From Halarcobacter sp. (GTDB lineage Bacteria > Campylobacterota > Campylobacteria > Campylobacterales > Arcobacteraceae), in assembly GCA_048571215.1 (NCBI GenBank), contig CP182352.1:1536001-1600000 (forward strand): a stretch of DNA of 64,000 nt. The letters run 5' to 3'. The notes below the pieces were generated by a model. That model was not told the DNA's origin, did no database searches, and worked only from the letters and a program-made list of their open reading frames with translations. Each line of letters opens with the position of its first letter. The first letter of the stretch is position 1. The position numbers and the translations under genes were made by a program. Of this stretch, positions 4,901 through 56,337 are shown piece after piece.

Positions 4901-6903
4901 ATTGATGTATAAACAACCTCTTTCATCCTATCATGAGAAAAACAACATAATGGGTCAATAGTATTCTTTAGCTGACTAAATACAAGCCACTCTTTTTCTA
5001 CTGCTTCATCTAAGAGAGTTTCAAAAATTACTTTATTATCATAAATTCTTTCTAATAAAATTTTTGAAAATTCATTACCTATACACGAAGCAATTTTCAA
5101 TAAATATTGAAGCTCATTAGAAAATAGTTTTATTTGCTTAAACAATATATCAAATACATTATCACTTATTTGCATATTTTCTATTCTTTCTAAATTACAA
5201 AACCATTTTAATCTATCAAAATCAAAGTAAACTGCATTTTCAACTTGTAATTCTTTTAGATATTGTTTTACAAAAAGAGCATTCCCTCGAGTTTTATTAA
5301 AAATAATTCTACTTACTTCATCAATCTCTTCTATTTCCATAGAGTTTGAAATAAACTTTTTAATAGAATCTTTAGTCATAGCCTCGATTTTTAAAAAATT
5401 AACATTTATATCAATTGAATTTAATTTCTTTAATAAAATATTAAAAGGATGGGTAAGTGTTACCTCATTTTCTCTATGTGTTGTAATTATCAATACATTT
5501 TTTAAATTTATTATTAATTTTTCTATTAATTTTAAAGTAACAAAATCTATCCATTGCACATCATCAAAATATATGCAAAGAGGTTTATCATCTTTGGAAA
5601 ATAGTTGTAAAAAACGGATTAATACAGAATCAAATTGGGCTTTATAGTCACTATCTAAACTAATATTATAACTATCTTTTGCTCCAACTATATACTCTAA
5701 TTCAGGAATAATTGAAAAAAGAAGAACAACTTTTTCTTTTAATTCATCTTCAATCTTTTTTTTCCAAAGTGTTATACTTGTTTTATCTTTAGTAATAATC
5801 TGTTTTGTTAAATTTCGTAATGCCAAATATAAAATCTCATAGGAACTATTTTGTTTAAACTCATCAAGTTTAACTTTAACTATATAACTAAAAGTGTTTT
5901 TATTTTTATCTAACATAAAATTAGTAAATGTGGATTTACCAATCCCTGAATCTCCATAAATAGAGATGAAAGATGATTTATTGTCTTTCAATTGCATCAA
6001 ATAATCATCAAATATCTTAAACTCTTCCTCTCTTCCAAAAAGTTCATTTAAATGATTTAATTCCAAAATATTACGCATACTATCTAATTCAAACTCATTC
6101 AAACAATTATTATCAAAAACTCTTATTAAATCCATAACAACTGATACTATGTTACTATAACGATTTTTTTGATCTTTTGCTATCATCTTATCAATAATAA
6201 AAGAGACACTCTTAGGGATATTTTTATTTATTAAACATACACTTGGCAACTCTTTTGTGACAACAGCATAAGGGATTGAAGATTCATTTATTATTTCATA
6301 TAAGGCTTTACCTGTCAATAGATAATAAAATACCATCCCCAAACTATATATATCACTAGTAAAATTTATACCATCACTAACACGCCCTGTCTGTTCTGGA
6401 GATTGATATATATTATGAACATCTAATTCATAAGAAAAATCACTATATTCTGATTTAAATGAAGCAGCTCCAAATCCTGCTAATTTGACATTGTAATTAT
6501 CGTTTATGAGGATTGTTTCTGGGCTAATAGTAGTATGTAAAATATTATTACTATGCAAAGTATATATTGCTTTAGATAAAGAGATTGCAAGGTGAAAAAA
6601 TCTTTCAAAAGGTAATAAATCATTTTTATTAACAAACTCTTCTAAAGTTGAACCTTCAAAATATTTTCTAATCAAATATATCTTATCATCAATTTTAGAT
6701 AATGATTCAACTTCAACTATATTTTCATGTTTGCATTGATTTAAGATAGAATATTCATTTTGAAGTTTTTTTTCACTTCTTAAAAGATTATTTTTTTCAC
6801 TTTTGAGAATTATCTTTTGATTATTTTTATCATATGCAATATATAAGTTAGAATTCGTTGTACTATTAAACTTTGGAAGTTTGTTAAATCTCTTTATTTG
6901 CAT
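1939..6903 (-). CDS. Multidomain signalling protein: degenerate Ser/Thr kinase + STAND-type AAA ATPase + helical repeats + GAF + GGDEF diguanylate cyclase
   Basis: Kinase-like YQSPEQTGR and SDIYSLG; Walker A GDSGIGKS; Walker B IYFDDVQW; GAF (SVLCAPI...IYLEN); DVDFFKNYND, RASD I-site, RYGGEEF. Confidence 0.85.
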   Translation of the reverse strand: MQIKRFNKLPKFNSTTNSNLYIAYDKNNQKIILKSEKNNLLRSEKKLQNEYSILNQCKHENIVEVESLSKIDDKIYLIRKYFEGSTLEEFVNKNDLLPFERFFHLAISLSKAIYTLHSNNILHTTISPETILINDNYNVKLAGFGAASFKSEYSDFSYELDVHNIYQSPEQTGRVSDGINFTSDIYSLGMVFYYLLTGKALYEIINESSIPYAVVTKELPSVCLINKNIPKSVSFIIDKMIAKDQKNRYSNIVSVVMDLIRVFDNNCLNEFELDSMRNILELNHLNELFGREEEFKIFDDYLMQLKDNKSSFISIYGDSGIGKSTFTNFMLDKNKNTFSYIVKVKLDEFKQNSSYEILYLALRNLTKQIITKDKTSITLWKKKIEDELKEKVVLLFSIIPELEYIVGAKDSYNISLDSDYKAQFDSVLIRFLQLFSKDDKPLCIYFDDVQWIDFVTLKLIEKLIINLKNVLIITTHRENEVTLTHPFNILLKKLNSIDINVNFLKIEAMTKDSIKKFISNSMEIEEIDEVSRIIFNKTRGNALFVKQYLKELQVENAVYFDFDRLKWFCNLERIENMQISDNVFDILFKQIKLFSNELQYLLKIASCIGNEFSKILLERIYDNKVIFETLLDEAVEKEWLVFSQLKNTIDPLCCFSHDRMKEVVYTSMEDEEKQKIHLKIAQTLYLMENKDNLILCINNFNLALSKLSDIQKNDVFDLNIEACLYSKRNGDFANALNYIKNAMEIIEQPSNYINILKLRAECEHLCHNNKEALYYYNFALEKANTIEEKGLIYELIINFYTDCTKFKEAYEIGRKAVLLFDMELPKEFNKFSLIKNFLVLKYKLKSYKVEQLLEIKEASDEKIKLLIRILSALLKVSYQIKPELSVEISMKLVDLCLKEGITSESVVGFMVFGVIFQGAVLSNHTIGNEYAQLCFKMVDKFNNTTQHAEVQFVCGYFAISWKHPSSYTESLWEDAYNNGIEVGDWFHSACAAAGIIQSMFMRGVNLDFILEKIEYFEVMLKSLGTVEQLGAILSVKQAILNLKNQTNSENSFSDKLFDEELYVNDLKEYKSPHFALFYYLNKMITLYFHKKYKEALDISVEGERFISSAKGMLHHTEYKFYEALIYAKLINNKKTFSNIINLKKIESIQKKFKAWAKSSPENFLAREKILLGEIYRIKNKFDLSIKVFEDALEIVNIYGQKNLEIIINNIISEMYKNKLQRKVTILYANDAKISLEKWIYNKNAQINDCFDKKNNDSFNIQTLTKSAEIIVQERHLSELLKKLIQLIIENASAQSGALLLKNDNEFLIQAQSFVDKEEIYVLQAEKIDDAKSIVKSVINYVINSGETLVLDNLQDNTIFNEDDDVLNRGVKSVLCAPIKLSGELKGIIYLENNLISSVFTYEKVELLKHLSGQIAISIENAQIYYKLEEKVKERTRDLDFKNEELADQNEILLDQNNKISQLNKEVLNENEERKKVELKLQKAIEKLDLLATTDSLTSLKNRRSFDEYLQRAFFQAQRDKKPLSLLICDVDFFKNYNDFYGHQKGDTCLMKVAEILMKSINRASDFVARYGGEEFAIILPDTDKMGALKVANEIHYNLSKCKIIHEKSSVSEYITISIGVSVSNQIDNCDVELLINTADKALYKAKELGRNQTI

Positions 6904-7016
6904 AGATATCCCTGAATTATTAATAATTATATTGTTTTGTAATTTAAATTAACTTTAAGAAATAAATAGCATAAGATTAATTCATCATTTTTTTATAGTT
7001 GAAAGATACCTACATA

Positions 7017-37962: not shown

Positions 37963-38858
37963 TGGAAAACTTTATTCTTATACTTTTAGCCATCGCTTTA
38001 GGTTATGGGGTAAATAGATTAAAAATTTTTTCAAAAGATGCTGCAACTACCCTAAACCAGTTTGTAATTTATATCTCACTTCCTGCAATGATTTTATTGC
38101 AAATACCAAAGTTATCCTTTTCTATGGATATGTTAATTCCTATAATCATAGCTTGGAGTGTTATGGCTATAACTGCCATACTTACATTTTATATATCAAA
38201 ACTTTTAGATTTTTCAAAAGAGGTTACAGGATGTTTGATGTTGGTTACTATTTTAACCAACTCTTCATTTTTAGGTATTCCTATACTAAATGCATATATG
38301 GGAGAAGAGGCTTTACCCTATGTTATTGTATATGACCAATTAGGAACTTTTATAGCCTTGGCTACTTATGGTACATTTATAGCTTCATATTATTCAAGTA
38401 AAAGTGAACTAAGTTTTAAAATTATTGTTTATAAAGTTCTTACTTTTCCACCTTTTCTTTCTCTAGTGGTAGCACTATTTTTAATGGGTGTTGAATTTAA
38501 TGAAGTTATCACAAAAGTACTAGCATCTTTAGCAAGTACCATTGTACCTGTTGCTTTAGTAGCAGTTGGTTTACAACTAAAATTAAAACTTGCAAAAGAG
38601 GAGATAAAACCCTTTGCTGTATCTTTAGGTATAAAACTTATACTTGCTCCAGCGATTGCATTTTTAATATGCTTTTTATTCTCTTGGGATAATAAAGTTG
38701 CAACTATATCTATAATGGAAGCGGGAATGGCACCAATGATAACAGCAGGTGCAATTGCATCTATGGCGGGACTTGCACCAAGACTTAGCTCTGCAATTGT
38801 TGGATATGGAATATTGATTTCATTTTTTACAACTTTTGTATTGTTTAATCTTTTATAA
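37962..38858 (+). CDS. AEC family transporter
   Basis: ISLPA, NSSFLGIP, MEAGMAP. Confidence 0.82.
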   Translation: MENFILILLAIALGYGVNRLKIFSKDAATTLNQFVIYISLPAMILLQIPKLSFSMDMLIPIIIAWSVMAITAILTFYISKLLDFSKEVTGCLMLVTILTNSSFLGIPILNAYMGEEALPYVIVYDQLGTFIALATYGTFIASYYSSKSELSFKIIVYKVLTFPPFLSLVVALFLMGVEFNEVITKVLASLASTIVPVALVAVGLQLKLKLAKEEIKPFAVSLGIKLILAPAIAFLICFLFSWDNKVATISIMEAGMAPMITAGAIASMAGLAPRLSSAIVGYGILISFFTTFVLFNLL

Positions 38859-40006
38859 TGAAAAATACTAAAGAGTTTTATAAAAATCTTAATACTATAA
38901 AAGATTTTTCCCAAATCACACAAGAAAATCTTTATAAAAAACTCCCTAGTGATTGGTATATTTTAGTTAGTGACATAAAAAACTCAACAGTAGCAATTGA
39001 AAATGGGATGTACAAACAAATAAATTTTGTAGCCTCACTTGTAATAATAGGTATAGTAAACTTGGAAAAAAACTTGGAGTTGCCTTTTATCTTTGGTGGT
39101 GATGGAGCTAGTGTTTTAATACCCAAATATCTACTTGAAAAATCAAAACAAGTCCTACTAGAAGCTAAAGAAAAAGCAAAAGAGAACTTTGGATTAGAAC
39201 TTAGAGTTGGAATAGTTCCCCTTAATGAAATAGAACAAAAAGGCAAATCAATATATGTAGCTAAATACTCTATCTCAAAAGATCACAGCCAAGCTATAGT
39301 AAGAGGTGAAGGTCTAAGCTTAGCTGAAGAGTTACTAAAAAATGAAGAAGAAAAATATAGTATAAAAGAGAGCTTGATAAACAATAATTTTGCTAATTTT
39401 AGTGGACTTGAATGTAGATGGCAAGATATACCCTCACCAAAAGATGAAACCTTATCTTTATTGGTAAAGGTTATAAATAAAGAGAATAGTTCACAAATAT
39501 ATAAAGAGTTAATATCAAAAATAGAACAAATAGCAGGAGCTTCAACACAAAGACATCCAATCAAATCTATTGATAACCTAAACCTATCTTTTAATCCTAT
39601 GTATCTAAATGCAGAAGCTTCTACTTTCTCATCAAATATATTTTCAAAGAGTTTTGTATTTTTAAAAATATTTGTAGAAAATATTTTAGGTTTATTTCTT
39701 ATGAATAAAAAAACATCCCAATGGGCTGATTACAAAAATAGAATTTTAAGAACAACAGATACAGAAAAATTTGATGATATGCTTAGGATGATTATAAGTA
39801 CTAATAAAACTCAAACAAAAGAGTTATTAGAGTATTTTGAAACAAAATTTAAAAACAAAGAGATAATTTATGGAGTTCATATCTCAAACTCTGCACTTAT
39901 GACTTGTTTGATATTTGAACGACATGGAAAACATATCCACTTTGTAGATGGTTCAAATGGTGGTTATGCATATGCTTCAAAGCATATGAAATCAAAAACA
40001 ATATAA
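38858..40006 (+). CDS. DUF3095 family protein
   Basis: SDIKNST, FGGDGA, GLECRW, HIHFVDG-x-x-GGYA. Confidence 0.75.
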   Translation: MKNTKEFYKNLNTIKDFSQITQENLYKKLPSDWYILVSDIKNSTVAIENGMYKQINFVASLVIIGIVNLEKNLELPFIFGGDGASVLIPKYLLEKSKQVLLEAKEKAKENFGLELRVGIVPLNEIEQKGKSIYVAKYSISKDHSQAIVRGEGLSLAEELLKNEEEKYSIKESLINNNFANFSGLECRWQDIPSPKDETLSLLVKVINKENSSQIYKELISKIEQIAGASTQRHPIKSIDNLNLSFNPMYLNAEASTFSSNIFSKSFVFLKIFVENILGLFLMNKKTSQWADYKNRILRTTDTEKFDDMLRMIISTNKTQTKELLEYFETKFKNKEIIYGVHISNSALMTCLIFERHGKHIHFVDGSNGGYAYASKHMKSKTI

Positions 40007-40807: not shown

Positions 40808-41647
40808 CTATTTTAATAAGCTTGAAATCTCTTCAATCTCTTTAATACTTAATTCAAAACTATCTAATAGTAAGTCCTCATTCATATGAGTTTTAGAAGT
40901 GGTACCATTCAATGGTACTACTCCTATTTGATTTAAAAACTTATAAAAAACAACCGCTACACTTTTATCATATTTTGATGCTAAGTAGTTTACAAATTTA
41001 TTTGATAATATATGTGGGTTTGCAGTGAGAGACCAAAAACTCTCATATATTATCCCTTTATCTTTACACCAAGCTCTAATCTCTTTGTCATAAGAGCTTT
41101 GGGCATAAAATCTATTTTGTACAATAGATGGCTTAGTATCTACATTTTTATATAAATATTCTAAAACATCCAAATCATAACAATTACTAATACCCAACTG
41201 TCCCACTTCTTTGTTTTTATAAAAACTACTCATAACTTCCCAAGCTTTTAAAAGTTTAGCTCCTGGAAATATTGGTGAGTGTAAAATATAAGAATCTATA
41301 TAATCAAGTTTTAGATTCTTTTTAGAAGTTTCAAAAGACTTTTTTATCTGAACCTCTAAAGAGTCTTCTGCAAGATAGGGCATGTTATTTATATCTTGTC
41401 CATCTATAGGAGTAAATTTTGTTTGAATATATATCTCCTCCCTTTTAAGTCCTTCATTAAAAGCTTTTGCTATCCCCTCACCCACTAAATCCTCTTGATA
41501 ATGTTTTGGTTGACAAGCTGTATCTATCCCTTTAAAGCCAGTTTTTAAAGCCTCATAAACAAAATCTGCTGTTTGCTGTTTTTTCCAAGCAGTTCCATAA
41601 ATCATATTTGGTATTTTAATATTTTGATTTGATAAAAAATAGTTCAT
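40808..41647 (-). CDS. Aldo/keto reductase
   Basis: YGTAW, IDTA...Y, YIDSYILHSP, LGISN. Confidence 0.85.
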   Translation of the reverse strand: MNYFLSNQNIKIPNMIYGTAWKKQQTADFVYEALKTGFKGIDTACQPKHYQEDLVGEGIAKAFNEGLKREEIYIQTKFTPIDGQDINNMPYLAEDSLEVQIKKSFETSKKNLKLDYIDSYILHSPIFPGAKLLKAWEVMSSFYKNKEVGQLGISNCYDLDVLEYLYKNVDTKPSIVQNRFYAQSSYDKEIRAWCKDKGIIYESFWSLTANPHILSNKFVNYLASKYDKSVAVVFYKFLNQIGVVPLNGTTSKTHMNEDLLLDSFELSIKEIEEISSLLK

Positions 41648-41780
41648 AAATAAATCCTTCGTATTTTTTATTATACTAAAGCAAAAATTCTAATTCTAGC
41701 TTATAAATGTCTATTATATAAACATCCTTTTGTAAGATTAAATTTTAAAACACTATATAATTTCAATAAAAAGAGCAAAA

Positions 41781-41999
41781 ATGGCAAAAGAGTTCAACCC
41801 AGATGATTTTTTTAGTGTAAAAACAGTAGAAGAAATCGTACCAAAATTTAAGCACCTATATAATCAAAACTACCAAGAACTAAGTTTAAATGAAGAACTA
41901 GTAAAACTAAACTACGAAATCACTTCACCTGAGTACAAAGACAAAAGCTTTGCAAAGTTAGAAGAGTATTTTAAATATGAAGTTGATACGATAGTCTAA
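41781..41999 (+). CDS. Hypothetical protein
   Basis: 72-aa ORF with upstream TATAAT and a purine-rich RBS. Confidence 0.55.
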   Translation: MAKEFNPDDFFSVKTVEEIVPKFKHLYNQNYQELSLNEELVKLNYEITSPEYKDKSFAKLEEYFKYEVDTIV

Positions 42000-42203
42000 A
42001 ATGTTAAAAATTTTAATCCTATTGATTCTTTTGTAGATATAAATTAATCTGTTTGAAAACATACTGTTTTCCTACATAATAATTATAAAAATATTATATC
42101 ACATAAGTTGGTTTTGTTAAAATTTAATTTTTACTTATAAAATTCGGCTCAATGCAAATAAAAAACCATCAAAAATTGCTTATAATTGAATAATAACGAT
42201 AAT

Positions 42204-42770
42204 TTAAGTATCTAATACCTTCTTTATCAAATATGCACTATGTAATCTTTCAATCAATGTAAATTGATTATTAATAGGAGAATGTATTTTATTTTCGAAC
42301 AGTTTTATCTTTTCTAAGCCTACATTTCCATTTGTATAAATTAAAATAGGTATATTTTCATCAACACTTTTCAATAACTTAAACCATTCTTCTAATGTTT
42401 TATCATCTTCTGCAAATAAAATAATTATAGAAAAGTTATTTAATTTAATTTTTTCATTACAATTATTTATGTTCTTCATATTTCTAAATTTAGAAAATAT
42501 AGCCATATTATTAATTTTATTTTTATTATCATTACAAATTAAAATCTTACTTTCTCTAAAATCTTTAATATTTTTTATATCATTTAAATGCTCTAAAATT
42601 TCATTTCTATATCCATCAAACATTGAAGATAATTTATCTTTAATATTAGCATTAAAATAATCAGAAGTTTTTTTATCACATATAGTCTTAATAAGAAAAT
42701 ATATTAATACACCTAAGAATCCAATAATCAAGGCTAAAACTACTTTTGATATCAAACTTTCAAATTCCAT
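42204..42770 (-). CDS. CRISPR-associated membrane protein: N-terminal TM helix + C-terminal Rossmannoid/REC-like domain (Cam2/NARF-like candidate)
   Basis: TM VVLALIIGFLGVLIYFLI; beta-strand pattern KILIC / IIILF / ILIYT; starts 2 nt after the HEPN ORF. Confidence 0.55.
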   Translation of the reverse strand: MEFESLISKVVLALIIGFLGVLIYFLIKTICDKKTSDYFNANIKDKLSSMFDGYRNEILEHLNDIKNIKDFRESKILICNDNKNKINNMAIFSKFRNMKNINNCNEKIKLNNFSIIILFAEDDKTLEEWFKLLKSVDENIPILIYTNGNVGLEKIKLFENKIHSPINNQFTLIERLHSAYLIKKVLDT

Positions 42771-42772
42771 TT

Positions 42773-43832
42773 TTATTTTCCTCTTTTTCCATTAGATTTT
42801 TTTCTCTCAATAAAATAACTTGAATAATCATAAGACTCAATTGAATTATCAATTTTATGAAGGATAGAATTTATCTGAGTATAAATACTTTCTAAATCTT
42901 TTATTTCATCCTTCACAATAACTCTATTATGAGCTATTGCATTTCTTATCTTGGATAGTTTTTTCCACTTCACATCAAATAAATTTTGTTTATTTTCTAA
43001 TAAATTGCAAAAATATAATTCCCAATTTGTTTTAGGTAAAAACTTTTCTAAATCATCTATACAAGTTAATTTTCTCTCTAAGTATCTATTAATCAACTCT
43101 TTTTTTTCTTCTTTCGTTAATCTCTCATATGGTATAAACAAAAAATCCCTTATTTCTTTAAAGTCTACATAATACAAAATATCTCCACACTTGTAATCTA
43201 AATTATTATTTTTTCTTTTAACTCCATTTTTAATTTCTGTGGGAATAGTTTTGTCATACCAATTTGCACCCATAAAACGATACATTACCTTTGTTAAAAC
43301 TTTTCGCATCATAAAGCTTTGGATAATATTCATTACATATATATGCCTCATATGAATTAGATAGAACTAAGGGCTTATTTTTAGTTTCATCCATAATTAC
43401 TTTTTCTAGATACTCTTTTATATTTTCAAATAAACTAATTTTTTTTATACTATAAGGTGTATTCTTATAAGATATTTCCGAATCATCAACTTTTGGTTCA
43501 TTTTCATTTGTGCCAGTAATGTCCATTTCTTCTTCATAGAATAAATCACATTTTTTTTCAATATTATCAAATGTAATGGAAAAAATGAATATTCCTTCTT
43601 TTAGCATTTTAAATTGATAATTAAACTTTATTTCTTCATCATCATTAATAAAAAAATATTTACCATCTTTATTTATTTCTATAGATATATCTATTTCTTT
43701 TCCATCAATTTCAAATCTACTAATACTTTCCAAATTTCCTAAAATAATATGATTAAGAAAAAAATCTTCTTCTTTTTTGATTTTTGAAATAGCATTAACA
43801 TCAATTAAATATTCTAATTCGTAATTATTCAT
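42773..43832 (-). pseudogene. HEPN (Swt1/ApeA-like) ribonuclease gene split into two overlapping ORFs (43254-43832, 42773-43351)
   Basis: RxxxxH motif RNAIAH; YPKLY in ORF1 joins MRKVL...GANW in ORF2 near 43310; starts 2 nt after csm5. Confidence 0.65.
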
Positions 43833-43834
43833 AA

Positions 43835-44935
43835 CTATTCTTCTATCTCACACAATACCCATCCAAAAGGTAGTAAGGTATCAATACTATCTTCATTCTC
43901 TCCAAAAAGCCATGTAGTTGTTTCTTCTTCTAAGTTTTCCCAAATATTTTTCTTTCGTTTAGGACCGCCACCACTAACTTTTACTTTTATATTTCTTAAA
44001 CCATCTATTGTTACAGTTCTTGCTCCACTATGTTTTCCAATCCGTAATAAAAATTGATTTTTATTTTTAAACTCAAAGTTTAAATACTTTTCATAAAAAT
44101 CTTCTCTAAAATAATCAATTATAAAATCATATTCTAAAGAATCTTTATATAAATTTTTTTGTCTAAACATAGAATCAAATAATTCATAATAATGATCATT
44201 GCATGATTTTATTATCTTTTCAATTGTTATTTGCTCTTTAGAATTATAATCTTTAATTTGTAAAGATGTTTCAAATTCAGATTTTTCACATATAACTTCA
44301 ATTTTTGTTGATGGTCCTTGATTGTCATCTTCAAATCTCTCTTTATTTAAAGAAAAACCTATAAGAGAGGAACTATTTAGTATTTTTGTATCAGATATAG
44401 AAATATTTTTAAAAATACTTTCACTTGGCATTTGAAAAGTTTCTTTCAATTTTGAGTAGTTACTATTTTTGTAAATATATTCTTGATATGCAGTTGAGAT
44501 TGAGCCTTTGATACTACTTCCTGTAATATATGGATTACCAGTTATTTCATCTTTTATTGTTTTTTGAATTTGAAATTGGTTTATTACAGGTTTTTTTATT
44601 CCTGAGCCTTCAAATTTAGATATTATACCTATTCTCCTATTATACTCTTTTTCGATACCCTGGGTAACTTTCACTTTTAAGGTAAAAATATTTTTTACTA
44701 TATCTTTTCGTTTTTTTATAAATTTATTTATAGAAGATAATGCTAAGTTATCTTCTCTTGTTACTAATTCTTCAAATTTTGTTTTATCTTCTTTTGATAA
44801 ACTTTCAAAAAAACTAAATTCATCAAATTCATAAAGGAAACCATTATCTATAACGAAGTTTGTAGGTTCATATGATTCTCCTATGCCAATATGCATAGGA
44901 GTTAAAAGAGTCATTTTTAATTTATAAGTCTTCAT
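43835..44935 (-). CDS. csm5: Type III-A RAMP protein Csm5
   Basis: LTPMHIG, PYITGSSIKG, LRIGKHSG, PFGW. Confidence 0.85.
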   Translation of the reverse strand: MKTYKLKMTLLTPMHIGIGESYEPTNFVIDNGFLYEFDEFSFFESLSKEDKTKFEELVTREDNLALSSINKFIKKRKDIVKNIFTLKVKVTQGIEKEYNRRIGIISKFEGSGIKKPVINQFQIQKTIKDEITGNPYITGSSIKGSISTAYQEYIYKNSNYSKLKETFQMPSESIFKNISISDTKILNSSSLIGFSLNKERFEDDNQGPSTKIEVICEKSEFETSLQIKDYNSKEQITIEKIIKSCNDHYYELFDSMFRQKNLYKDSLEYDFIIDYFREDFYEKYLNFEFKNKNQFLLRIGKHSGARTVTIDGLRNIKVKVSGGGPKRKKNIWENLEEETTTWLFGENEDSIDTLLPFGWVLCEIEE

Positions 44936-45831
44936 TTTATTTCCTTTAAAGGAAAGAGTATAGAATACCCTTGATGTATAGCTTTTTCAAATGATGATAT
45001 ACCTTTAATAGCTTTACCATCATAAAATCTCTCTTTAGTGAATTTATATTTAATCACTGTTGAGTTTTTTGCTAAAAGTATAGGTTTTTTAAATGGATTA
45101 TCATTATCTACTTGGCTGGAGTTTTTACCAAATTTTGTTAAAGGAGAATAATATAATTCTTCACACTCTAAATTTTCCAATGAAATAGAAGATAATGTCA
45201 TATACGTTGTTGTTTCATTTTTTAAACTTATTTCTTCAAAATCTTCTTTTTGAAATATAAACCTACCTTTTCCTATAGAAGTTTTTTTGCCATAACCAAA
45301 CTCTGATATAAACTCCATACACTCTAATAATTTTTCTTTTTTAAATTGTTTTGATAATAAAAAATATATATCAAATTCAAAATCTTTTATTGGATATTCT
45401 TCTATACCAAAAGGTGAGAATCTATCTTTTTCGGTCCTAAAAGCAAGATAATTTAATGAGTTTTTCATAACATTTATTTTTTTATTTAAATCAACTCTTC
45501 CCTCTATATTATTGATATTTTTAGCATTTATATAATTTCCATTTTCTAAATCTTTTATTTTCAGCCACAATTTTTTTGAATTATTTTTCTTTTCTTTACT
45601 ATTTTCTTTTAAAAATTTCATAGGCATATTTGGCTTTGGAAGATAACCTTTAGGGAAGCCATCTGAAACAATCAAAAAGGGATTTTTATCATATTCTAAA
45701 AGTAATTCTTCTAACTTATCTTCACCATACTTATTTTTAATTGCCCAACATATTTGACCAAATAGAGTATCTCCTTGCAAAGATGTTGCAAAATTAGAAA
45801 TAGGCTTTATAGTAAGTTTATAAAGTTTCAT
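44932..45831 (-). CDS. csm4: Type III-A Cas5-group protein Csm4
   Basis: GDTLFGQICW, VSDGFP, GYGKKTSIGKG; likely start MKLYKL at 45831. Confidence 0.85.
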   Translation of the reverse strand: MKLYKLTIKPISNFATSLQGDTLFGQICWAIKNKYGEDKLEELLLEYDKNPFLIVSDGFPKGYLPKPNMPMKFLKENSKEKKNNSKKLWLKIKDLENGNYINAKNINNIEGRVDLNKKINVMKNSLNYLAFRTEKDRFSPFGIEEYPIKDFEFDIYFLLSKQFKKEKLLECMEFISEFGYGKKTSIGKGRFIFQKEDFEEISLKNETTTYMTLSSISLENLECEELYYSPLTKFGKNSSQVDNDNPFKKPILLAKNSTVIKYKFTKERFYDGKAIKGISSFEKAIHQGYSILFPLKEIK

Positions 45832-45833
45832 CA

Positions 45834-46511
45834 CTATTCCCATTTATCTTTATTACTAAAACTCACTCTTCCATAACCTCTTGTACCGTTTCCACCTAAA
45901 TAATCATCTTCAATAAGTTCTAAACCTTTTTTCACTATATCTTTTAATTTATCTTGTTCATCGTCAAATGGTTTATCTTCAATAATTTTTAAAGAAATAA
46001 TATAATTAAACTTTACCCCCCTACATACTCTTTCAGTTTGTCTTGGATGTTTTGCTGTTCCATTTGTTCTATCTATTACATTTTCATATTTTGATTCGGT
46101 AAGATTTTTTATATCTTTTTGTTCAATAAGACTACAATCAGAAAAGCTAAGTCTTGTAACACCATAATTTTCTCTTTTTTCTTCAGAATTCGCATCTCCA
46201 AAAAGTTTTATTAGATTTACTGCTTTCTCTTTTTTTCCCTCTTTTTCAAAAACTACATCAGAAAAATATTTTGAAGAAAAAGGTTTCCCTTTTTCCTTAT
46301 CATCTCTTCCAACATTAACCAATCCAAAATGCCATTCTAGTAAACTTCTCATCTTACCTTTTATACTACTTCCAGGGACATAAGGTTTATCAGTATTTAT
46401 ATCTTTTATAACACTATTACTAACACCTCCAATTTTCATAACATCATCACCAGCACCAATATGTAAACCTGTTAATACTTCTAACTCTCCAACTAATTTT
46501 AATATTTTCAT
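45834..46511 (-). CDS. csm3: Type III-A Cas7 backbone protein Csm3 (catalytic Asp apparently replaced by Ser)
   Basis: TGLHIG, PYVPGSSIKGKMRSLLE, ENVIDR, YLGGNGTRGYG; IGGVSNSVIKD; likely start at 46511. Confidence 0.9.
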   Translation of the reverse strand: MKILKLVGELEVLTGLHIGAGDDVMKIGGVSNSVIKDINTDKPYVPGSSIKGKMRSLLEWHFGLVNVGRDDKEKGKPFSSKYFSDVVFEKEGKKEKAVNLIKLFGDANSEEKRENYGVTRLSFSDCSLIEQKDIKNLTESKYENVIDRTNGTAKHPRQTERVCRGVKFNYIISLKIIEDKPFDDEQDKLKDIVKKGLELIEDDYLGGNGTRGYGRVSFSNKDKWE

Positions 46512-46512
46512 T

Positions 46513-46875
46513 TTAATCTCTCCCCTCAAAAAAACCTAGCACAGCTTCAAAAAAAAGTTTAAAACAAAGCAAAGTATCTTTTATATTTTCTTTTGTAATT
46601 AAACTTACACATTGACTCATCATATCCTGAAATTCTTTTGATACAACACCCCTACTTCTTGCATATGATACTTTTGAATTTAACATTTTTACAAAAGGAA
46701 TAATATTTTCAACATCTTCATTATTTTTATTCAACTTATTTTCTAAATCCATTATATATTCATAAAAATTTCTAAGTTGTGTTTTTTTAGTTTTACCTAT
46801 AGCTAAAGCCCATTCTTGCGCAACTTTATTAAAAAGTTCTTCATTTTTTGTATAATCTAATACTATATTTTGCAT
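46513..46875 (-). CDS. csm2: Type III-A small subunit Csm2 (Cas11)
   Basis: TQLRNFY, KVSYARSR, FFEAVLGF; 120 aa between cas10 and csm3. Confidence 0.88.
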   Translation of the reverse strand: MQNIVLDYTKNEELFNKVAQEWALAIGKTKKTQLRNFYEYIMDLENKLNKNNEDVENIIPFVKMLNSKVSYARSRGVVSKEFQDMMSQCVSLITKENIKDTLLCFKLFFEAVLGFFEGRD

Positions 46876-48444
46876 CTAGTCTCTCCCTTTATAAATAAAT
46901 TCACTTATTACCATCTTTGAAGCTTTTGGATTTTTCTCTATTTGTGTATCTAAGACTTTATATAAATCCTCATAACTTTCTTTTTTCATATTTCTTCTAA
47001 AACTATAATTTAGTTTTGATTTCCACATAGTAGATAAAACATCACCCTCTTTAACTTTTATTGACATTTCTATTAATTCTAAAAGAGAATAAAAAAATGC
47101 ACTTTTTTTATCTTCTTCTTCGATTTTACTAAGCTCATTTTCTAATACTTTTTTTACATCAATATACTCTTGCCACTTTACAGTTTCATCAAAAAGTGTA
47201 ATAGAGTCTTTATCTTGGTTTTCTTTTGATTTTTCAAGTAACTCTTCAATCTTAGAAGACATATAAGATATTGGTACATTTTCTTTACTTAGCATAATTG
47301 CTACACTTAATGTAAGGTTTTCGTTTGAAAAATTTCTAAATTCTTTATATATTTTTTCTGAAAAATCTATTATTTCATTCCATGCACCTATAATAAAAAA
47401 GTCATCTCCACCTGTAAAAACTACATAAGTATTTTTATAGTTTTCTTCTAAAAATTCTGGTACTTTTTGAGTGAAAAAGTTGTTTAAAGTATAAGAAAAA
47501 TAAATATAGTTTTCATAACTATCAAAAGCATTACTCTTATCTTTAATAAATTCTCCTAAACTATCAACATCACCTTTTATTACAGCTAAGTTTTCTGCAC
47601 CTTCTGTATTTTTTGCTAAATCATCAAAACTATAAGCCACACCTTTTTCGTTTGATTTTACATAAGATTTAATTTTCCAAAATTCTTTTAGGCTTTTAAA
47701 TTCATCATTTTCATTTTCTGAAAATGAAACATGGTAGTTATTGAAAATCTTTATACCACTATCATCATTTGAAATTTTCATATAATTTTTACTTGCTAAA
47801 TTTTCACCTAACTTTATAAAATCGTCACAAATTTTACAAACTTCTTTTTCCTCTTGTATTCTTCTTATTCCACAGGTTTTACATAGTGTTTGATTAGTTG
47901 GAACATCAACATAATCCAAAACTGTATTTTGATTTTGTAAATTAAACTTATTAAACTTTGCAAACTCCATCTTTTCGTTTAGTTTTTCTCTGATTTCTCT
48001 AAATTCTTTAGGATTAATTAGATATGATTTTAAAATATCCATGGATACAAGCTTTACCCCTGCTAGGGCAAAAAAGTTTTCTATAAAGTAATTATCTACT
48101 TCTTTTTGAATCTCTTCAATTTTATTTTTGTCAACTCTTGGAGATAGTATTTCTATTTTTCCAGCCTCACTAAAAATAATATTTTCTTCCTCTAGTCCTA
48201 AAACTTTTAGTATATATAGGGATAATACTTTTGTAAATATTTGTACATAAGCTGATTTTGCTCTTAATACTTTATAAGCTTTTGATGATGGTACATTTTC
48301 AAAAATAAAGTTTTGTATTCCATAAAAATCTGCACAAATGATAGTCAACTCATTGTCTTTTAAAATATCATCTATTTTTAAAATATCTTTTTTAAATAAT
48401 TCACTATATTTTTTATTAAATACATTTTTAACTTCTATCATCAA
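46876..48444 (-). CDS. cas10: Cas10/Csm1 without HD domain; Palm cyclase motifs intact
   Basis: Begins almost at DFYGIQNFIF; zinc finger CKTC/CKIC; KGDVDSLG; VFTGGDDFF; only 522 aa. Confidence 0.9.
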   Translation of the reverse strand: MMIEVKNVFNKKYSELFKKDILKIDDILKDNELTIICADFYGIQNFIFENVPSSKAYKVLRAKSAYVQIFTKVLSLYILKVLGLEEENIIFSEAGKIEILSPRVDKNKIEEIQKEVDNYFIENFFALAGVKLVSMDILKSYLINPKEFREIREKLNEKMEFAKFNKFNLQNQNTVLDYVDVPTNQTLCKTCGIRRIQEEKEVCKICDDFIKLGENLASKNYMKISNDDSGIKIFNNYHVSFSENENDEFKSLKEFWKIKSYVKSNEKGVAYSFDDLAKNTEGAENLAVIKGDVDSLGEFIKDKSNAFDSYENYIYFSYTLNNFFTQKVPEFLEENYKNTYVVFTGGDDFFIIGAWNEIIDFSEKIYKEFRNFSNENLTLSVAIMLSKENVPISYMSSKIEELLEKSKENQDKDSITLFDETVKWQEYIDVKKVLENELSKIEEEDKKSAFFYSLLELIEMSIKVKEGDVLSTMWKSKLNYSFRRNMKKESYEDLYKVLDTQIEKNPKASKMVISEFIYKGRD

Positions 48445-49262
48445 ATCTCCTTAACCTCTATTTTCCCAAGTCCAAAAACTGTTTGTTTTCCTACATTTAA
48501 TAGTTCTGCTATTTTTAGTATTTTATAGTTTTGTTCACTTAAATCTTTTACAACTAAACTTCCCATTACACCATCAAATTTCATTTTTGTTTTTTGGGGA
48601 CTACTATATCTTGTAAGATTTTTTTTATAGAGGTTTTTATTTACTACTTTATACTCTTTTGTTACTTCTAGTTTTGGCGCATTTGGATAGATGTATTCAT
48701 ATCTTTTTCTACTTGAAAGCAAGATATCAAAAAGGTCTAAACTATCATCATATATAAGTTTATTTTCTTTTTTTATTCTTATGGGTGTTAGTATATTTAT
48801 AGCTACGTCTTTTTTTGTTTCACTCTCTTTATACTCTTTTTGTGTAATATTTTTTAAATCAAAGGTTTCGTTTTCATAAACCAAAATATCATTTACATAT
48901 ATTTTAAACTCATTAAAATACTTATTCTCTTTTCCAAGACCAATAGAAGTTAATAACTTATGAAAACTTGAAAGTATAAAAGGAAGTTGTTCACATACCT
49001 CATCAAAAAGATAAAAAGAAAAATCATAAGATTTGTTGCCAAGAGATATATCAAATCTATATTTATGATAATTATCTTCCAAATAAAATGTGTAAAAAAG
49101 ACAATTATCTTTTGCAAAACAATTTTCACATTCGTATGTTGGATTTATGCAAACCACTTTTTTAAGAGCATACCCCAAAGCCCCACGAAGCTGACTTCCA
49201 GTAAAATAAGGAGGCATATACTCTTCATATATTTTTATATCTATTTTGTAATATTTCATCAA
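48441..49262 (-). CDS. cas6: Cas6 pre-crRNA endoribonuclease (Cys-cluster type)
   Basis: GSQLRGALG, C-x5-C-x2-C-x5-C cluster, C-terminal G-loop VGKQTVFGLG. Confidence 0.88.
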   Translation of the reverse strand: MMKYYKIDIKIYEEYMPPYFTGSQLRGALGYALKKVVCINPTYECENCFAKDNCLFYTFYLEDNYHKYRFDISLGNKSYDFSFYLFDEVCEQLPFILSSFHKLLTSIGLGKENKYFNEFKIYVNDILVYENETFDLKNITQKEYKESETKKDVAINILTPIRIKKENKLIYDDSLDLFDILLSSRKRYEYIYPNAPKLEVTKEYKVVNKNLYKKNLTRYSSPQKTKMKFDGVMGSLVVKDLSEQNYKILKIAELLNVGKQTVFGLGKIEVKEI

Positions 49263-49478
49263 ATAACTTTTAAATATTGTATTTTCTTTTATTATATTAT
49301 AAATTATATTAATCTTTTAAAATAACTTTTTCCAACTAAATTTAAAAAAATCTATGATAAACTACCATAATATCAAAGTTCTTTAAAAACCTATTGTTTT
49401 TAATAAAATGCTTGGAAAAATCCAATCAAATCCCATAAAAAGGGGAAATTAAGATTTTAAAAGCACCTATTTACTTTG
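49263..49478 (+). promoter_or_regulatory. AT-rich CRISPR leader and divergent cas promoter region
   Basis: Non-coding, between cas6 and the first perfect repeat; contains the inverted pair TTTTTCCAA...TTGGAAAAA. Confidence 0.65.
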
Positions 49479-51343
49479 GTAGAGACCTGACATATAAGGG
49501 ATTAAAACGACTATCAAGTGCTTTTATATTTTTATTATCTACTGTAGAGACCTGACATATAAGGGATTAAAACTTAAAAACAGACATCTATATTCTCCTT
49601 ATTGTTTGTGTAGAGACCTGACATATAAGGGATTAAAACTTACTAGAGCTGTAAATTTTACAGAGTTACCAGAGTGTAGAGACCTGACATATAAGGGATT
49701 AAAACGAGTTATTATGAATTTTTATTGATTTTGTTAAAAAGTAGAGACCTGACATATAAGGGATTAAAACTATTATTACTTAATATTTTATTTTATAACA
49801 ATTTTTCTGTAGAGACCTGACATATAAGGGATTAAAACTACTATTTAAAGCCATGATATCCCCCTTACTTTTCTGTAGAGACCTGACATATAAGGGATTA
49901 AAACGTAGATAACTAAACATTCTATTATTTTATCAACTTGTAGAGACCTGACATATAAGGGATTAAAACCTGGGTGAAAAACTTGGAGTGGTGGGAAGAA
50001 ATATGTAGAGACCTGACATATAAGGGATTAAAACAAATAAGATAATCCCTCTGCAATAGTATTAAATCCGTAGAGACCTGACATATAAGGGATTAAAACT
50101 GAAAAAGAGAAACACTAGCAGAATGAATATAATTACGTAGAGACCTGACATATAAGGGATTAAAACATTTGTAATTAATCCATATCTTGTAATGCTCCTT
50201 GTAGAGACCTGACATATAAGGGATTAAAACGCATCTTTGTATATGTCTTTCCATATCCAAAAAGCTAGTAGAGACCTGACATATAAGGGATTAAAACATA
50301 ATCACCAATTAGCTTTAAATCTTCTTTTTTATAGGTAGAGACCTGACATATAAGGGATTAAAACCAATTTTACTTAGTTCAAAAAGACTGTAATCTTCAT
50401 TGTAGAGACCTGACATATAAGGGATTAAAACTCCACTAAGTCTTTTTTGGAAGTCTTTAAGTTAAGAGTAGAGACCTGACATATAAGGGATTAAAACATG
50501 ACACTTGAAACTTTTTTTAACACAAACGAAACAGTAGAGACCTGACATATAAGGGATTAAAACTTAAAAGCGTGAAGTTGATCTATTAGTTCTGTACCGT
50601 AGAGACCTGACATATAAGGGATTAAAACTATAGTTCCACATCTTTTGTCTAATACTTATTTTGTAGAGACCTGACATATAAGGGATTAAAACATTAAAGG
50701 TTGAGCTGTATCATAGTTTACTCCTAGTGTAGAGACCTGACATATAAGGGATTAAAACTAGCATATGCTATTTTGTTTTCGACACTAGATAAGTAGAGAC
50801 CTGACATATAAGGGATTAAAACTTTACATAAGTTTCATTTAGTGTTAAATATGCTTCTGTAGAGACCTGACATATAAGGGATTAAAACTTTGAAAATGCA
50901 AAAGGTCTTTTATGTTCCGCATCATTGTAGAGACCTGACATATAAGGGATTAAAATTGAAATAAAATTTATCAAACCAAATAATAAACCTAGTAGAGACC
51001 TGACATATAAGGGATTAAAATGCAGATACAACACAAAAACCATTATCTTTGAATGCTGTAGAGACCTGACATATAAGGGATTTAAAATACCTATGCCTAA
51101 TTGTTGTCTACCTTGTACTTGTAGTAGAGACCTGACATATAAGGGATTAAAATTTCCAAATATGGTGAACAGTAGGTGCAATATCATGTAGAGACCTGAC
51201 ATATAAGGGATTAAAATAATTTTACTGTTGCACTTACACTAGTTGCAGCCATTGTAGAGACCTGACATATAAGGGATTAAAATAATGATGTAAATACTCG
51301 TAATCAGGACAATCAAACTGTAGAGACCTGACATATAAGGGAT
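49479..51343 (+). CRISPR. CRISPR array: 29 repeats (GTAGAGACCTGACATATAAGGGATTAAAAC, 30 bp) and 28 spacers of about 34-38 bp
   Basis: Repeats counted directly; the 3' ATTAAAAC handle and degeneration at the right end set the + orientation. Confidence 0.97.
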
Positions 51344-51673
51344 GTTTTTAATAAATAAGGAATAACGAATAATGAATAATCTTCTTCAACTTTTCATTTT
51401 TCACTTTTCATTATTCATTTATATTGACCTGACATATAAGGAATGTTTTTAATGAATAATGAATAATCTTCTTTAATTTTTCATTTTTCACTTTTCATTA
51501 TTCATTTATATTGACCTGCCATATAAGGGATTAAAACGATACACACATATCAAATTGTTTCTCTTCAAAGCTAGTAGAGACCTGACATATAAGGGATGTT
51601 TTTAATGAATAAGGAATAACGAATAATGAATAATCTTCTTCAATTTTTCATTTTTCACTTTTCATTATTCATT
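51344..51673 (+). repeat. Degenerate CRISPR trailer: partial repeats, one extra spacer and three heptamer-based inverted-repeat blocks
   Basis: Partial repeats at 51426, 51513 and 51574; spacer 51538-51573; AATGAAT-type and TTTTCAT-type heptamer arms in three blocks. Confidence 0.85.
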
Positions 51674-54721: not shown

Positions 54722-55096
54722 ATGATAATAAAAAACTTAAGAATAGAAAATGGTTGGTCACAAGAAAAATTAGCTGAAATCACTGGATTGAGTTTAAGAA
54801 CTATACAAAGAGTAGAAAAAGAGGACAAAGCTAGCTTGGAATCTCTAAATCTTTTAGCTAATGCTTTTAGCTTAGATATTAAACAACTACAAGATAAATT
54901 AAAAAATAAACCTTTTAAAACTGAAACTGAAACTAAAAATAATCATAAGAAAATAATCACAATTTTTATTGCTGTAAACTTACTACTTATTACTATAAAT
55001 CTTTTAACAAACTCTAGTCACTTATGGTTTATCTATCCATTATTAGGATGGGGAATTCCACTTTTTTATAAAATATATATAAAAGAAAAGCTTTAA
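54722..55096 (+). CDS. XRE HTH protein with C-terminal 2TM domain
   Basis: WSQEKLAEITGLSLRTIQRVE; WFIYPLLGWG. Confidence 0.8.
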   Translation: MIIKNLRIENGWSQEKLAEITGLSLRTIQRVEKEDKASLESLNLLANAFSLDIKQLQDKLKNKPFKTETETKNNHKKIITIFIAVNLLLITINLLTNSSHLWFIYPLLGWGIPLFYKIYIKEKL

Positions 55097-56337
55097 AATC
55101 TACTATTTTTTATCACTTTTTCTATCTTTTTTTTATCCACTTTAAGATTTTTTGCTTCTTGTTTAAATCTACTTATAAAATACTCTTTTATGTTTTTTAC
55201 TAACTCCTCTATCTCTTTGTCACTTCCTATTGAAAACATCTTTGAAACAGCTTTTATATCCTCTATACTAAAATCATCTCTTTTTCCATTTATACTCATT
55301 TGGTGTTTTGCTGTATAGTCATTGCCTTTATTATATGTGATATCATATAAAGGTGCAGTTTTCCAAACTCCTTTTTCATCCATCAAAAAAGAGAAGTTTT
55401 TTGTATGATCATCTTGATTACAAGTAATTACATTGTATAACATATGGATAAATGCACTCTCCAATTGCTGTCTATCTTTAGTAAGGTATTCAACTACTCT
55501 TAAATACTCTTCGTAAGAGTAAGAACCTGGTATATTAAAATTTGTATGAGTAAGCCCGCATAAAGAGTGCATATGTATTTTTTTATCTTCTATAATATCA
55601 AATCTTTTTACTAAAAGATGACTAAAATCTCTTTCGTGAAAAATCTCTACATCTGCTACGTTTAAATCAAGCTCTTTTGCTATTTTCATATAGATATACT
55701 CAACTTTTCCATAATCTGCTGGAACATAATCTTTTCCAACACCATCAAATTTTATAAGATAGTTCTCAAAACCTTTTTTAAAAGGTAGTCTTCCTGATAC
55801 TATTTCATTTGTAGTTTTATTCCATTGAATAACCGCTTTTGCTCTAGCTCCCCCTGCACTTCCTCCTGATGATATTAGTTCAGGAATTGCAACTGTAATA
55901 TCCCCTTTTATAATCTTTCTAGCATCATCAACCAAAGATTTTATCTCTAAAGATTCTTTTAAAATCTCTGTTGGTTCATTTGGAATATACTCCAAAGCTC
56001 CCATACCAGTTTTTCCTATATATGCTAACTTTTGTATTGATGATAATTCATACTCATTTATCCCTTTTTTTGCATAAAATCTTTTTATAACCTCATTTCC
56101 AAATTTATCAGGTAAAGAATCAAAAAATACTCCAGCTAAACCTTCAAAAAATCTATCATCACTATTGTTATAAACAGCAGTTGTCTCTAAAGGCAATTTT
56201 ATAGGGGATATCTCTAAACCACTATTTTTAAACTCATCTTCATATTCAAAATATATATTATCTTTCTCATCTAAAGATAAAAACCCAACTATTTGCCCAT
56301 AAAGTTGTACAATCAAAGAATCATTATTCGTTTTCAT
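55093..56337 (-). CDS. hipA: HipA family kinase toxin
   Basis: DSLPD-x-FG, GMGALEY, SAGGARAKA, KRFD, NQDDHTKNFSF, PLYD. Confidence 0.85.
   Translation of the reverse strand: MKTNNDSLIVQLYGQIVGFLSLDEKDNIYFEYEDEFKNSGLEISPIKLPLETTAVYNNSDDRFFEGLAGVFFDSLPDKFGNEVIKRFYAKKGINEYELSSIQKLAYIGKTGMGALEYIPNEPTEILKESLEIKSLVDDARKIIKGDITVAIPELISSGGSAGGARAKAVIQWNKTTNEIVSGRLPFKKGFENYLIKFDGVGKDYVPADYGKVEYIYMKIAKELDLNVADVEIFHERDFSHLLVKRFDIIEDKKIHMHSLCGLTHTNFNIPGSYSYEEYLRVVEYLTKDRQQLESAFIHMLYNVITCNQDDHTKNFSFLMDEKGVWKTAPLYDITYNKGNDYTAKHQMSINGKRDDFSIEDIKAVSKMFSIGSDKEIEELVKNIKEYFISRFKQEAKNLKVDKKKIEKVIKNSRF

Follow-up and report, generated by a model that had tools for sequence, protein, structure and literature searches.

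A Cam2-like membrane protein with a predicted receiver fold in a type III-A CRISPR locus of Halarcobacter sp. and its relatives beside CBASS cyclases

The type III-A CRISPR (clustered regularly interspaced short palindromic repeats) locus on contig CP182352.1 of Halarcobacter sp. (assembly GCA_048571215.1) ends in a small gene for a membrane protein, raising the question of what this protein contributes to the system. The gene (42204..42770, minus strand) encodes 188 amino acids (aa) and lies in the window, the whole stretch of 64,000 nucleotides analysed here (positions 1,536,001 to 1,600,000 of the contig), where it is the last gene of an operon of cas6, cas10 and csm2 to csm5, all in the same orientation. 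The Cas10 of this operon has a GGDD cyclase motif at residue 345 and no 'HD' in its first 120 residues, and it is predicted to be a GGDD-bearing Cas10 without the HD nuclease domain, since the Csm1 model matches it only at positions 225-750 of 753. An original prediction, made from the letters of the sequence, had named the small protein a membrane-anchored, receiver-like protein and the only intact effector candidate of the locus. This identification was right in substance and its interpretation is partly supported: the gene probably encodes a Cam2-like ancillary effector of type III-A CRISPR that is gated by a cyclic oligonucleotide at the membrane, and we would place the protein with the Cam2 kind as a new and compact example, a transmembrane (TM) pseudo-receiver.

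Architecture and fold of the 188-residue protein

The open reading frame (ORF) begins with ATG, approximately 10 nt downstream of a Shine-Dalgarno-like AGAGGA, and is confirmed as real and conserved, more than a chance frame, because it has homologs of 44-60% identity, 14 family representatives and conserved columns. The layout first proposed, one N-terminal TM helix followed by a helical linker and an alpha/beta domain, is borne out by a hydropathy scan and by an AlphaFold 2 (AF2) model built on five relatives (mean pLDDT 78.5, pTM 0.63). The TM helix, at about residues 10-28 (42687..42743, on the minus strand like the other parts of the gene), is the only hydrophobic segment found with a 19-residue scan, with a mean Kyte-Doolittle (KD) hydropathy of 2.68 over its 19 residues, and all 21 family rows scored have exactly one TM segment above KD 1.6. 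It is preceded by a short acidic N-terminal tail and followed by K/R residues, flanking charges that suggest a topology with the N-terminus outside and the C-terminus inside the cell. A helical stalk at about residues 32-68 (42567..42677) carries the heptad-spaced residues I43, L47, F51, Y54, I58, L62 and I65 and is modelled as helix by AF2, which gives an unbroken helix from residue 2 to 64 and then a five-strand alpha/beta domain from 70 to 188. The strings KILIC, IIILF, ILIYT and INNQFTLIERL quoted in the original prediction all occur in the translation, which was loosely said to end with the last of them; it continues for 12 further residues (HSAYLIKKVLDT).

No CARF, SAVED or other family was recognized on the protein by Pfam and NCBIfam (E<=0.01), PADLOC (E<=1, the CBASS effector models included) or PHROGs (E<=0.01), in agreement with the predicted lack of a CARF signature; the sole library match is a sub-threshold NCBIfam hit on the TM helix. 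The C-terminal domain (about residues 70-188, 42207..42563) has a clear receiver (REC/CheY) fold in the model, as supported by structural alignment with VIA-align and Foldseek, the ESM Atlas model, conservation and the register of an hhalign alignment. VIA-align against 48,161 chains returned Z scores of 10.2-11.9 and root-mean-square deviations (rmsd) of 2.5-3.6 Å over the 50 matches listed; the top matches are all receiver or flavodoxin-like domains, and 31 of the 50 titles name a receiver, REC, response regulator or two-component protein, the REC-titled matches covering about 106-119 residues. Most of the remaining chains contain a receiver domain as well. The matches behind the fold assignment reach Z 11-12, at rmsd 2.6-3.0 Å over 110-119 residues. 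No CARF or SAVED chain is among these 50, which does not exclude such a fold. The best match is AmiR (PDB 1qo0; Z 11.9, rmsd 3.0 Å, 119 residues), which is also a non-phosphorylated receiver joined to a coiled coil. The best Foldseek matches are likewise REC domains, weak by E-value and with TM-scores up to 0.64 by target. Independently, the ESM Atlas also models the protein as REC; its feature matches (0.80-0.81) are under the reliability level and serve as leads only. These results concur with the Rossmannoid, REC-like fold originally proposed.

The domain resembles canonical receivers (PF00072) in its five-strand flavodoxin-like fold and in the acidic residue D81 after beta1, but differs from them in its membrane anchor, in having no conserved phospho-acceptor aspartate and no kinase partner, and in giving no match to Pfam Response_reg at E<=0.01. 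Compared by hhalign with 12 REC domains of the same genome, the domain aligns marginally (probability 25.6%, E 7.4e-4, 73 columns), with a sensible register that pairs KILICND with KILIVED and PILIYT with IPIIxIT. At the end of beta3, the position of the REC phospho-acceptor aligns to F119 and is an aspartate in 1 of 20 members, in a stretch with no conserved column where the register is uncertain by a residue or two. The REC threonine after beta4 aligns with T146, a threonine in only 11 of the 20, and the REC Lys-Pro region falls outside the aligned part, the family having N167 near that place. Judged by its sequence, then, the domain is a pseudo-receiver rather than a working receiver, because the phospho-acceptor aspartate appears to be lost. 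On its two sides the gene of the 188-residue protein is flanked by cas genes and HEPN-like ORFs as well as by a 72-aa ORF and an aldo-keto reductase gene, with no histidine kinase gene among them.

Across 20 members, down to 23% identity, D81 (the only invariant acidic residue of the family), Y145, T171 and L172 are invariant, and F71, K72, L77, N80, N167, L176 and Y180 are nearly so. By REC topology these residues are expected where strands 1, 4 and 5 end C-terminally and where helix 5 starts, and would thus coincide with the classic pocket face and the alpha4-beta5-alpha5 face of receivers. The T171-x3-R175 spacing may resemble that of the CARF motif. A search of PDB sequences with the family profile gave no meaningful match, the best being a designed Rossmann protein (E 0.0026), and no solved CRISPR or CBASS effector sequence was matched at E<=10.

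Relatives in type III-A and CBASS loci

The family of the 188-residue protein, here called TM-REC, is small, with 14 representatives at 50% identity among 1.84 billion proteins; these are about 180-213 aa long, fragments and one repetitive 820-aa protein aside. The latter (P0014, with nine short repetitive stretches) was excluded from all alignments, the fragments P0007, P0009 and P0012 were excluded from alignment A5, and P0017, a duplicate of the member in locus L010, was excluded from the tree. An alignment profile identified real members in 4 of 184 Arcobacteraceae genomes, namely the window genome (G000), the M. canalis-like G148, G151 and G060, and in none of the other 24 genomes searched of the window's genus; rows from G015, G041, G116 and G123 (E 2e-6 to 6e-4), which lie inside frames of 950-1466 aa, were judged non-members. 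In a 401-genome sample of the phylum only G000 and G151 were found, with none outside the family Arcobacteraceae among the genomes searched, and viral contigs, plasmids and phage records yielded no homolog. A scan of genome contigs for homologs gave one locus only.

In all four Arcobacteraceae genomes with a homolog, the gene is preceded by a type III-A operon with an HD-less Cas10, so that the linkage to cas10 proposed as a check was found throughout. In the M. canalis-like genome, G151 and G060 it stands directly after csm5 and directly before the CRISPR array, with no other non-core gene there. Of the 184 genomes, 11 have Csm1, and all four TM-REC carriers are among those 11; the Cas10 of each carrier starts at Csm1 model position 218-225, three genomes with a Csm1 match from position 2 or 108 are without the TM-REC gene, and G006 has an HD-less Cas10 but no TM-REC match. 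GGDD is kept in the three Cas10 proteins checked. The association of TM-REC with Csm1 has a one-sided Fisher p of 7e-6, a value that exaggerates the association, as the genomes are kin and represent two sequence groups only.

Homologs were also found next to cyclases of cyclic-oligonucleotide-based anti-phage signalling systems (CBASS). [quoted passage not shown] The cyclases, of 287-289 aa, match PADLOC model PDLC00803 (E 6e-74 and 7.5e-74), the NCBIfam CBASS cyclase (2e-19 to 2e-20) and Pfam SMODS, and are followed in both loci by an E2 gene (PDLC00865, E 8e-54 in L012). L012 further has a WYL/WCX helix-turn-helix (HTH) regulator just upstream and a type I restriction-modification system downstream. 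PADLOC found no other effector among the genes scanned in these operons; the L012 homolog itself matches no PADLOC CBASS effector model at E<=0.01, its only row being a weak 'C3a55' hit (2.8e-4). From their gene content, L012 and L013 are read as E2-type CBASS operons with a TM-REC protein in the effector slot. A cyclic-oligonucleotide synthase is therewith present in six of the six readable contexts of the family, and the CBASS-linked homologs therefore strengthen the reading of the protein as a signal sensor.

In a maximum-likelihood tree, the CBASS-linked rows fall within an 11-row clade (support 85/96) that holds the window's group, and the CRISPR-linked pair from G151 and G060 lies outside this clade. 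The CBASS-linked rows thus stand between two CRISPR-linked groups, and because the well-supported branches force one context switch only, no direction of transfer is readable. No report of a CBASS link of the TM-REC family was found in the literature.

The TM-REC (Cam2) proteins with which the original prediction compared the gene exist as described. Cam2, short for CRISPR-associated membrane protein 2 and reported by Hoikkala, Graham & White (Nucleic Acids Research (NAR) 2024; PMC11229360, cited here and below from excerpts), consists of an N-terminal TM helical part and a C-terminal domain structurally like REC. According to these excerpts, Cam2 was discovered in loci that lack a known effector and whose Cas10 is HD-less and cyclase-positive, is present in 26 type III loci, where it is next to NucC once and SAVED-CHAT twice, was predicted from these co-occurrences to bind cyclic triadenylate (cA3), was modelled as a trimer, and was singled out as a priority by its discoverers. 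The 188-residue protein is like Cam2 in its TM and REC architecture, its HD-less cyclase Cas10, its lack of a histidine kinase, its well-scoring trimer model, and the presence among its structural matches of PDB 3lua (VIA-align Z 10.6), the overlay entry for Cam2 in PMC11229360; unlike the Cam2 loci excerpted there, it has a split HEPN-like gene as a neighbour. Those passages of PMC11229360 that name CBASS do not link Cam2 to it, and literature searches turned up no further description of a TM effector of REC type in either CBASS or type III systems. The second comparison made originally, with NARF-type type III-associated proteins, found no support, as the term did not turn up together with type III CRISPR in the literature searched.

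Other membrane effectors offer partial parallels. Cam1 and Csx23, described as TM effectors of type III CRISPR gated by cyclic tetra-adenylate (cA4) in the excerpts of PMC11229360, share with the 188-residue protein N-terminal TM helices, a cytoplasmic nucleotide-sensing domain and a proposed output of membrane depolarisation or disruption, but Cam1 senses through CARF and Csx23 through its own tetrameric fold, whereas the domain here has a REC fold. Small TM proteins next to a CD-NTase, as in L012 and L013, are also found among CBASS membrane effectors, for which 1TM, 2TM and 4TM classes were defined by Millman et al. 2020 (as cited in excerpts of PMC12480259 and bioRxiv 10.1101/2022.04.27.489752), and the generic '1TM' class might include the TM-REC family; Cap15, however, has 2TM and a beta-barrel and Cap14-like proteins are 2TM-SAVED, in contrast to the REC fold of the TM-REC sensor. 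One effector family serving both CBASS and type III CRISPR is known from NucC, which uses cA3 according to PMC11229360 in excerpt, and from TIR-SAVED, although these enzymes, a nuclease and an NADase, are soluble and sense through other folds.

Proposed mechanism, ligand and alternative explanations

In the mechanism proposed for the window, the Csm complex would bind target RNA and Cas10 would make cyclic oligoadenylate, which the pseudo-receiver would bind, probably at its beta5-alpha5 face (N167, T171, L172, R175) and the N80-D81 pocket; in the trimer model this face lies between subunits. The change would be relayed through the coiled-coil stalk to the TM helices, and membrane integrity or potential would be lost, arresting or killing the infected cell. 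From the family's contexts and fold we infer signal binding, signal-driven oligomerisation, membrane disruption and abortive infection as functions of the 188-residue protein. It is quite likely that the protein is a nucleotide-gated effector, and the membrane is slightly favoured as its target. A broader proposal, plausible but held with some reserve, is that a degenerate REC fold makes up, beside CARF and SAVED, a third kind of receptor for cyclic oligonucleotides, carried by a single-pass effector that is exchanged between CBASS and type III CRISPR and that reads a shared alarm, most simply cA3, at the inter-subunit beta5-alpha5 motif N-x3-T-L-x-E/D-R/K-L.

Cam2 would be the first example in which the ubiquitous receiver fold senses a defence nucleotide. 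The case for Cam2 has so far been built on type III gene neighbourhood alone, to which the CBASS-linked relatives, the part of this analysis that is new and useful to specialists, add an independent line of evidence; the window contributes a compact 188-aa example with a single TM helix. Should the CBASS link hold, the likely ligand would be narrowed, two separate systems would be available for the same sensor, and the few components known to serve both CBASS and CRISPR would gain a membrane effector. Mutagenesis can be aimed directly at the conserved residues and the predicted interface.

Cas10 enzymes make cA3 to cyclic hexa-adenylate (cA6), and CD-NTases make cyclic di- and trinucleotides. 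The simplest molecule common to both is cA3, which as the ligand of the TM-REC protein is a tenable candidate, put somewhat short of even confidence. At E<=0.01 the L012 cyclase has a single solved relative, CdnC of E. coli MS115-1 (E 1.1e-9), the cA3 synthase driving NucC, and neither the L012 nor the L013 cyclase matches a solved CdnG at this threshold.

Assembly was examined with a three-copy model, for which the interface score ipSAE is 0.62 (runs 0.62, 0.66 and 0.48), as compared with 0.00 for the best of three controls with unrelated proteins; at least 81% of contacts are common to the runs, and the pLDDT of the partner does not fall under 73. Among solved homo-pairs 20 of 30 attain the mark set for ipSAE, as does 1 of 23 single chains, in a calibration on two copies and with other alignments. 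Confident contacts between copies occur in the stalk at the heptad positions 35, 43, 47, 51, 54, 58, 62 and 65, and a head-to-tail REC contact places residues 168-177, the most conserved stretch, against 141-143, 161-165 and 175-186 of the next copy. A trimer as the functional unit is a tentative suggestion, less secure than the choice of cA3.

Several points weigh against the reading of the protein as a Cam2-like, cA3-gated membrane effector. The readable contexts number only six, of which the four genomic ones are confined to a single bacterial family and two sequence groups, and the count excludes the distant members of 23-32% identity (P0008 and P0010-P0019). In L012, a 304-aa multi-TM protein encoded two genes upstream (6049-6963), before the WYL regulator, with about three hydrophobic segments and no family match, could be the effector of that operon. 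The CdnC match is weak and partial (residues 13-191), and the 45%-identical homolog may bind a different nucleotide. Clade G cyclases make cyclic dinucleotides, products that Cas10 is not known to make. As excerpted from PMC12948482, E2-type CBASS cyclases are mostly of clade G (73.65%) and longer. The resemblance to Cam2 was drawn from architecture and context, not from the authors' Cam2 sequence profile, binding of a cyclic oligonucleotide by a REC fold is without demonstrated precedent (PMC11229360, in excerpt), and literature searches found no experiment on Cam2 or on the 188-residue protein. The three-copy model was the only one run and would support self-association rather than a trimer in particular, and the TM residues are not among its confident contacts. 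Three single TM helices form only a small element in the membrane, and the trimer would probably have to assemble further to cause a lethal lesion.

In a variant of the main reading, the effector role is the same and the ligand differs, being cA4, cA6 or another Cas10 product in the CRISPR clade and a di- or trinucleotide other than cA3 in the CBASS clade, with a dimer or tetramer as the assembly. This is unlikely, although it would suit the prevalence of clade G among E2-CBASS cyclases (excerpts of PMC12948482) and the use of cA4 by the known TM effectors Cam1 and Csx23 (excerpts of PMC11229360), and the trimer was the sole stoichiometry modelled. It would also fit the conservation, which is highest in the alpha4-beta5-alpha5 face, the classical pairing face of REC domains, and the weak similarity of the neighbouring HEPN-like ORF to the HEPN part of Csx1/Csm6, enzymes that use cA4 or cA6. 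The short L012 and L013 cyclases with their match to CdnC and none to a solved CdnG, the trimer model that passes its controls, and the co-occurrence of Cam2 with the cA3 effectors NucC and SAVED-CHAT (PMC11229360, in excerpt) argue against it. Less likely again is an accessory or regulatory membrane protein that is not a killer and that tethers or modulates Csm or the cyclase, or buffers or relays the signal. REC domains are usually switches controlling a partner, one TM helix per chain is a modest membrane-damaging element, a separate 2TM-SAVED protein is encoded elsewhere in the genome, and Cam3 is a suspected accessory protein in the excerpts of PMC11229360; opposed to this are the three HD-less loci where the gene is the sole non-core gene between csm5 and the array and which otherwise have no effector in cis, and the CBASS operons where it fills the effector slot beside the cyclase and PADLOC sees no other effector among the genes scanned.

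That the HEPN-like gene is or was the working effector of the window genome, with the TM-REC gene a remnant or passenger, is very unlikely. Its ORF does sit between csm5 and the TM-REC gene with 2-nt gaps and has an R-x4-H motif and weak matches to the HEPN part of Csx1/Csm6, but the reading frame is split into two overlapping ORFs, as it is in contigs of three of four runs (possibly the source samples), no CARF or other sensor was detected on either ORF by the library scans, and its only clear relative is a stand-alone protein outside any cas locus. The three related loci lack the HEPN gene and keep the TM-REC gene, whose ORF in the window is intact with all family-invariant residues kept. 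The split makes it reasonable, though not proven, to regard the TM-REC protein as the only intact effector candidate, as had been predicted. Hardly credible is a role outside CRISPR signalling, as a common two-component receiver that a histidine kinase phosphorylates: the fold is REC and the genome has 69 canonical REC domains and many kinases, but the marginal hhalign result against the genome's own REC domains, the lack of a Response_reg match, the phospho-acceptor column at F119 and the unaligned Lys-Pro region all speak against it, no kinase gene is adjacent, and all six readable contexts are next to a nucleotide cyclase. A Cam2-like, nucleotide-gated ancillary effector is thus preferred for the 188-residue protein.

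The split HEPN-like gene and neighbouring features

Two ORFs of 192 aa each, on the minus strand, sit between csm5 and the 188-aa gene. The one directly upstream of the latter (42773..43351) has a Swt1-like HEPN domain with an RNAIAH motif (R-x4-H; PF18731, E 0.0026, below cut-off) and gives likewise sub-threshold hits to PADLOC PDC-M34B (9.5e-8) and the HEPN part of Csx1/Csm6 (1.4e-3). The gap of 2 nt between it and the 188-aa ORF was correctly noted in the original prediction as coupling to the cas operon, although the direct neighbour is this ORF rather than a core cas gene; a 2-nt gap also follows csm5. The second ORF (43254..43832) overlaps the first by 98 nt in another frame, has no match in Pfam, NCBIfam, PADLOC or PHROGs and no longer homolog, and gave an unusable single-sequence AF2 model (pLDDT 36.5). 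The HEPN-like ORF shares 31% identity over 158 aa with a 386-aa stand-alone protein of G039, its only clear relative, and because the HEPN similarity starts at the very first residues of the ORF, it is probably the C-terminal part of a frameshifted gene rather than one of two genes. ORF 43254-43832 shows no similarity to the N-terminus of the G039 protein, and no intact fused homolog of the split gene was found. In three of four DNA runs the contigs carry the window's sequence unchanged across the ORF overlap, although these runs may be source samples and not independent, and one run contig of depth 12 has small deletions elsewhere, at 43100, 43439 and 43773. As the gene is missing from the three related loci, it was likely inserted into the window locus only.

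The remainder of the operon, also on the minus strand, comprises csm5 (43835..44935; TIGR01899, E 1.6e-10), csm4 (44932..45843; TIGR01903, E 2.7e-29), csm3 (45834..46529; TIGR02582, E 1.4e-57), csm2 (46513..46875; PF03750, 1.5e-15, and TIGR01870, 1.2e-15), cas10/csm1 encoding 522 aa (46876..48444; TIGR02578, E 2e-110) and cas6 (48441..49262; PF10040, 3.8e-10, and TIGR01877, 4.6e-11, under the NCBIfam cut-off). No terminator-like site was found in 41600-49600, and a promoter scan was uninformative in this AT-rich DNA. Divergent from cas6 on the positive strand is the CRISPR array (49479..51615), with a 30-nt repeat (GTAGAGACCTGACATATAAGGGATTAAAAC) present in 28 copies with at most 3 mismatches and in degenerate copies at the far end, 30 copies being in register; the repeat is found nowhere else in the genome, all 28 matches lying in the array. 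A 106-aa 'ORF' at 50882-51202 (minus strand) is an artefact of reading through the repeats, in which the peptide NPLYVRSL recurs. The sole Cas1 match in the genome is at G000:C1:3252664-3253500, 1.7 Mb from the type III-A locus.

The type III-A locus of the window is flanked by a YitT-family membrane protein and an aminotransferase-like ORF on one side and the aldo-keto reductase on the other. In the three relatives, same-strand runs of ORFs of similar sizes precede the type III-A loci (L001 103-4380, L010 763-6496 and L011 188-5957), with 422/312/301/389 aa in L001 and, in the five-ORF runs of L010 and L011, 453-483/315/300/385 aa and 461-466/313/310/389 aa, which suggests an insertion site shared by these loci and a different neighbourhood for that of the window. 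In G151 (L010 7417-9000), the HD-less cas10 is interrupted by one in-frame TAG into ORFs of 109 and 344 aa, while the Cam2-like gene is kept, as is a short array with about 4 repeats, and this type III-A system may be decaying.

Outside the window, the same genome carries a separate CBASS locus (G000:C1:2210799-2213379; locus L018, 4799-7379), in which the CD-NTase is read as two overlapping ORFs of 245 and 292 aa that match positions 2-221 and 220-508 of one 509-position PADLOC cyclase model and are followed by a 346-aa 2TM-SAVED effector (PDLC00713, E 6e-49). Elsewhere in the window, a full-length DUF3095 protein (E 3e-128) is encoded at 38858-40006 on the positive strand, together with an HxlR-type regulator and a Mem_trans permease whose genes appear to form an operon with it. 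At 54722-56337, a HipA-like kinase gene (PF07804, 1.9e-43, and PF13657) is convergent with the gene for a 124-aa HTH_3 protein carrying a 2TM domain (PF13239), which may be an unusual membrane-bound partner of a HipA-type toxin.

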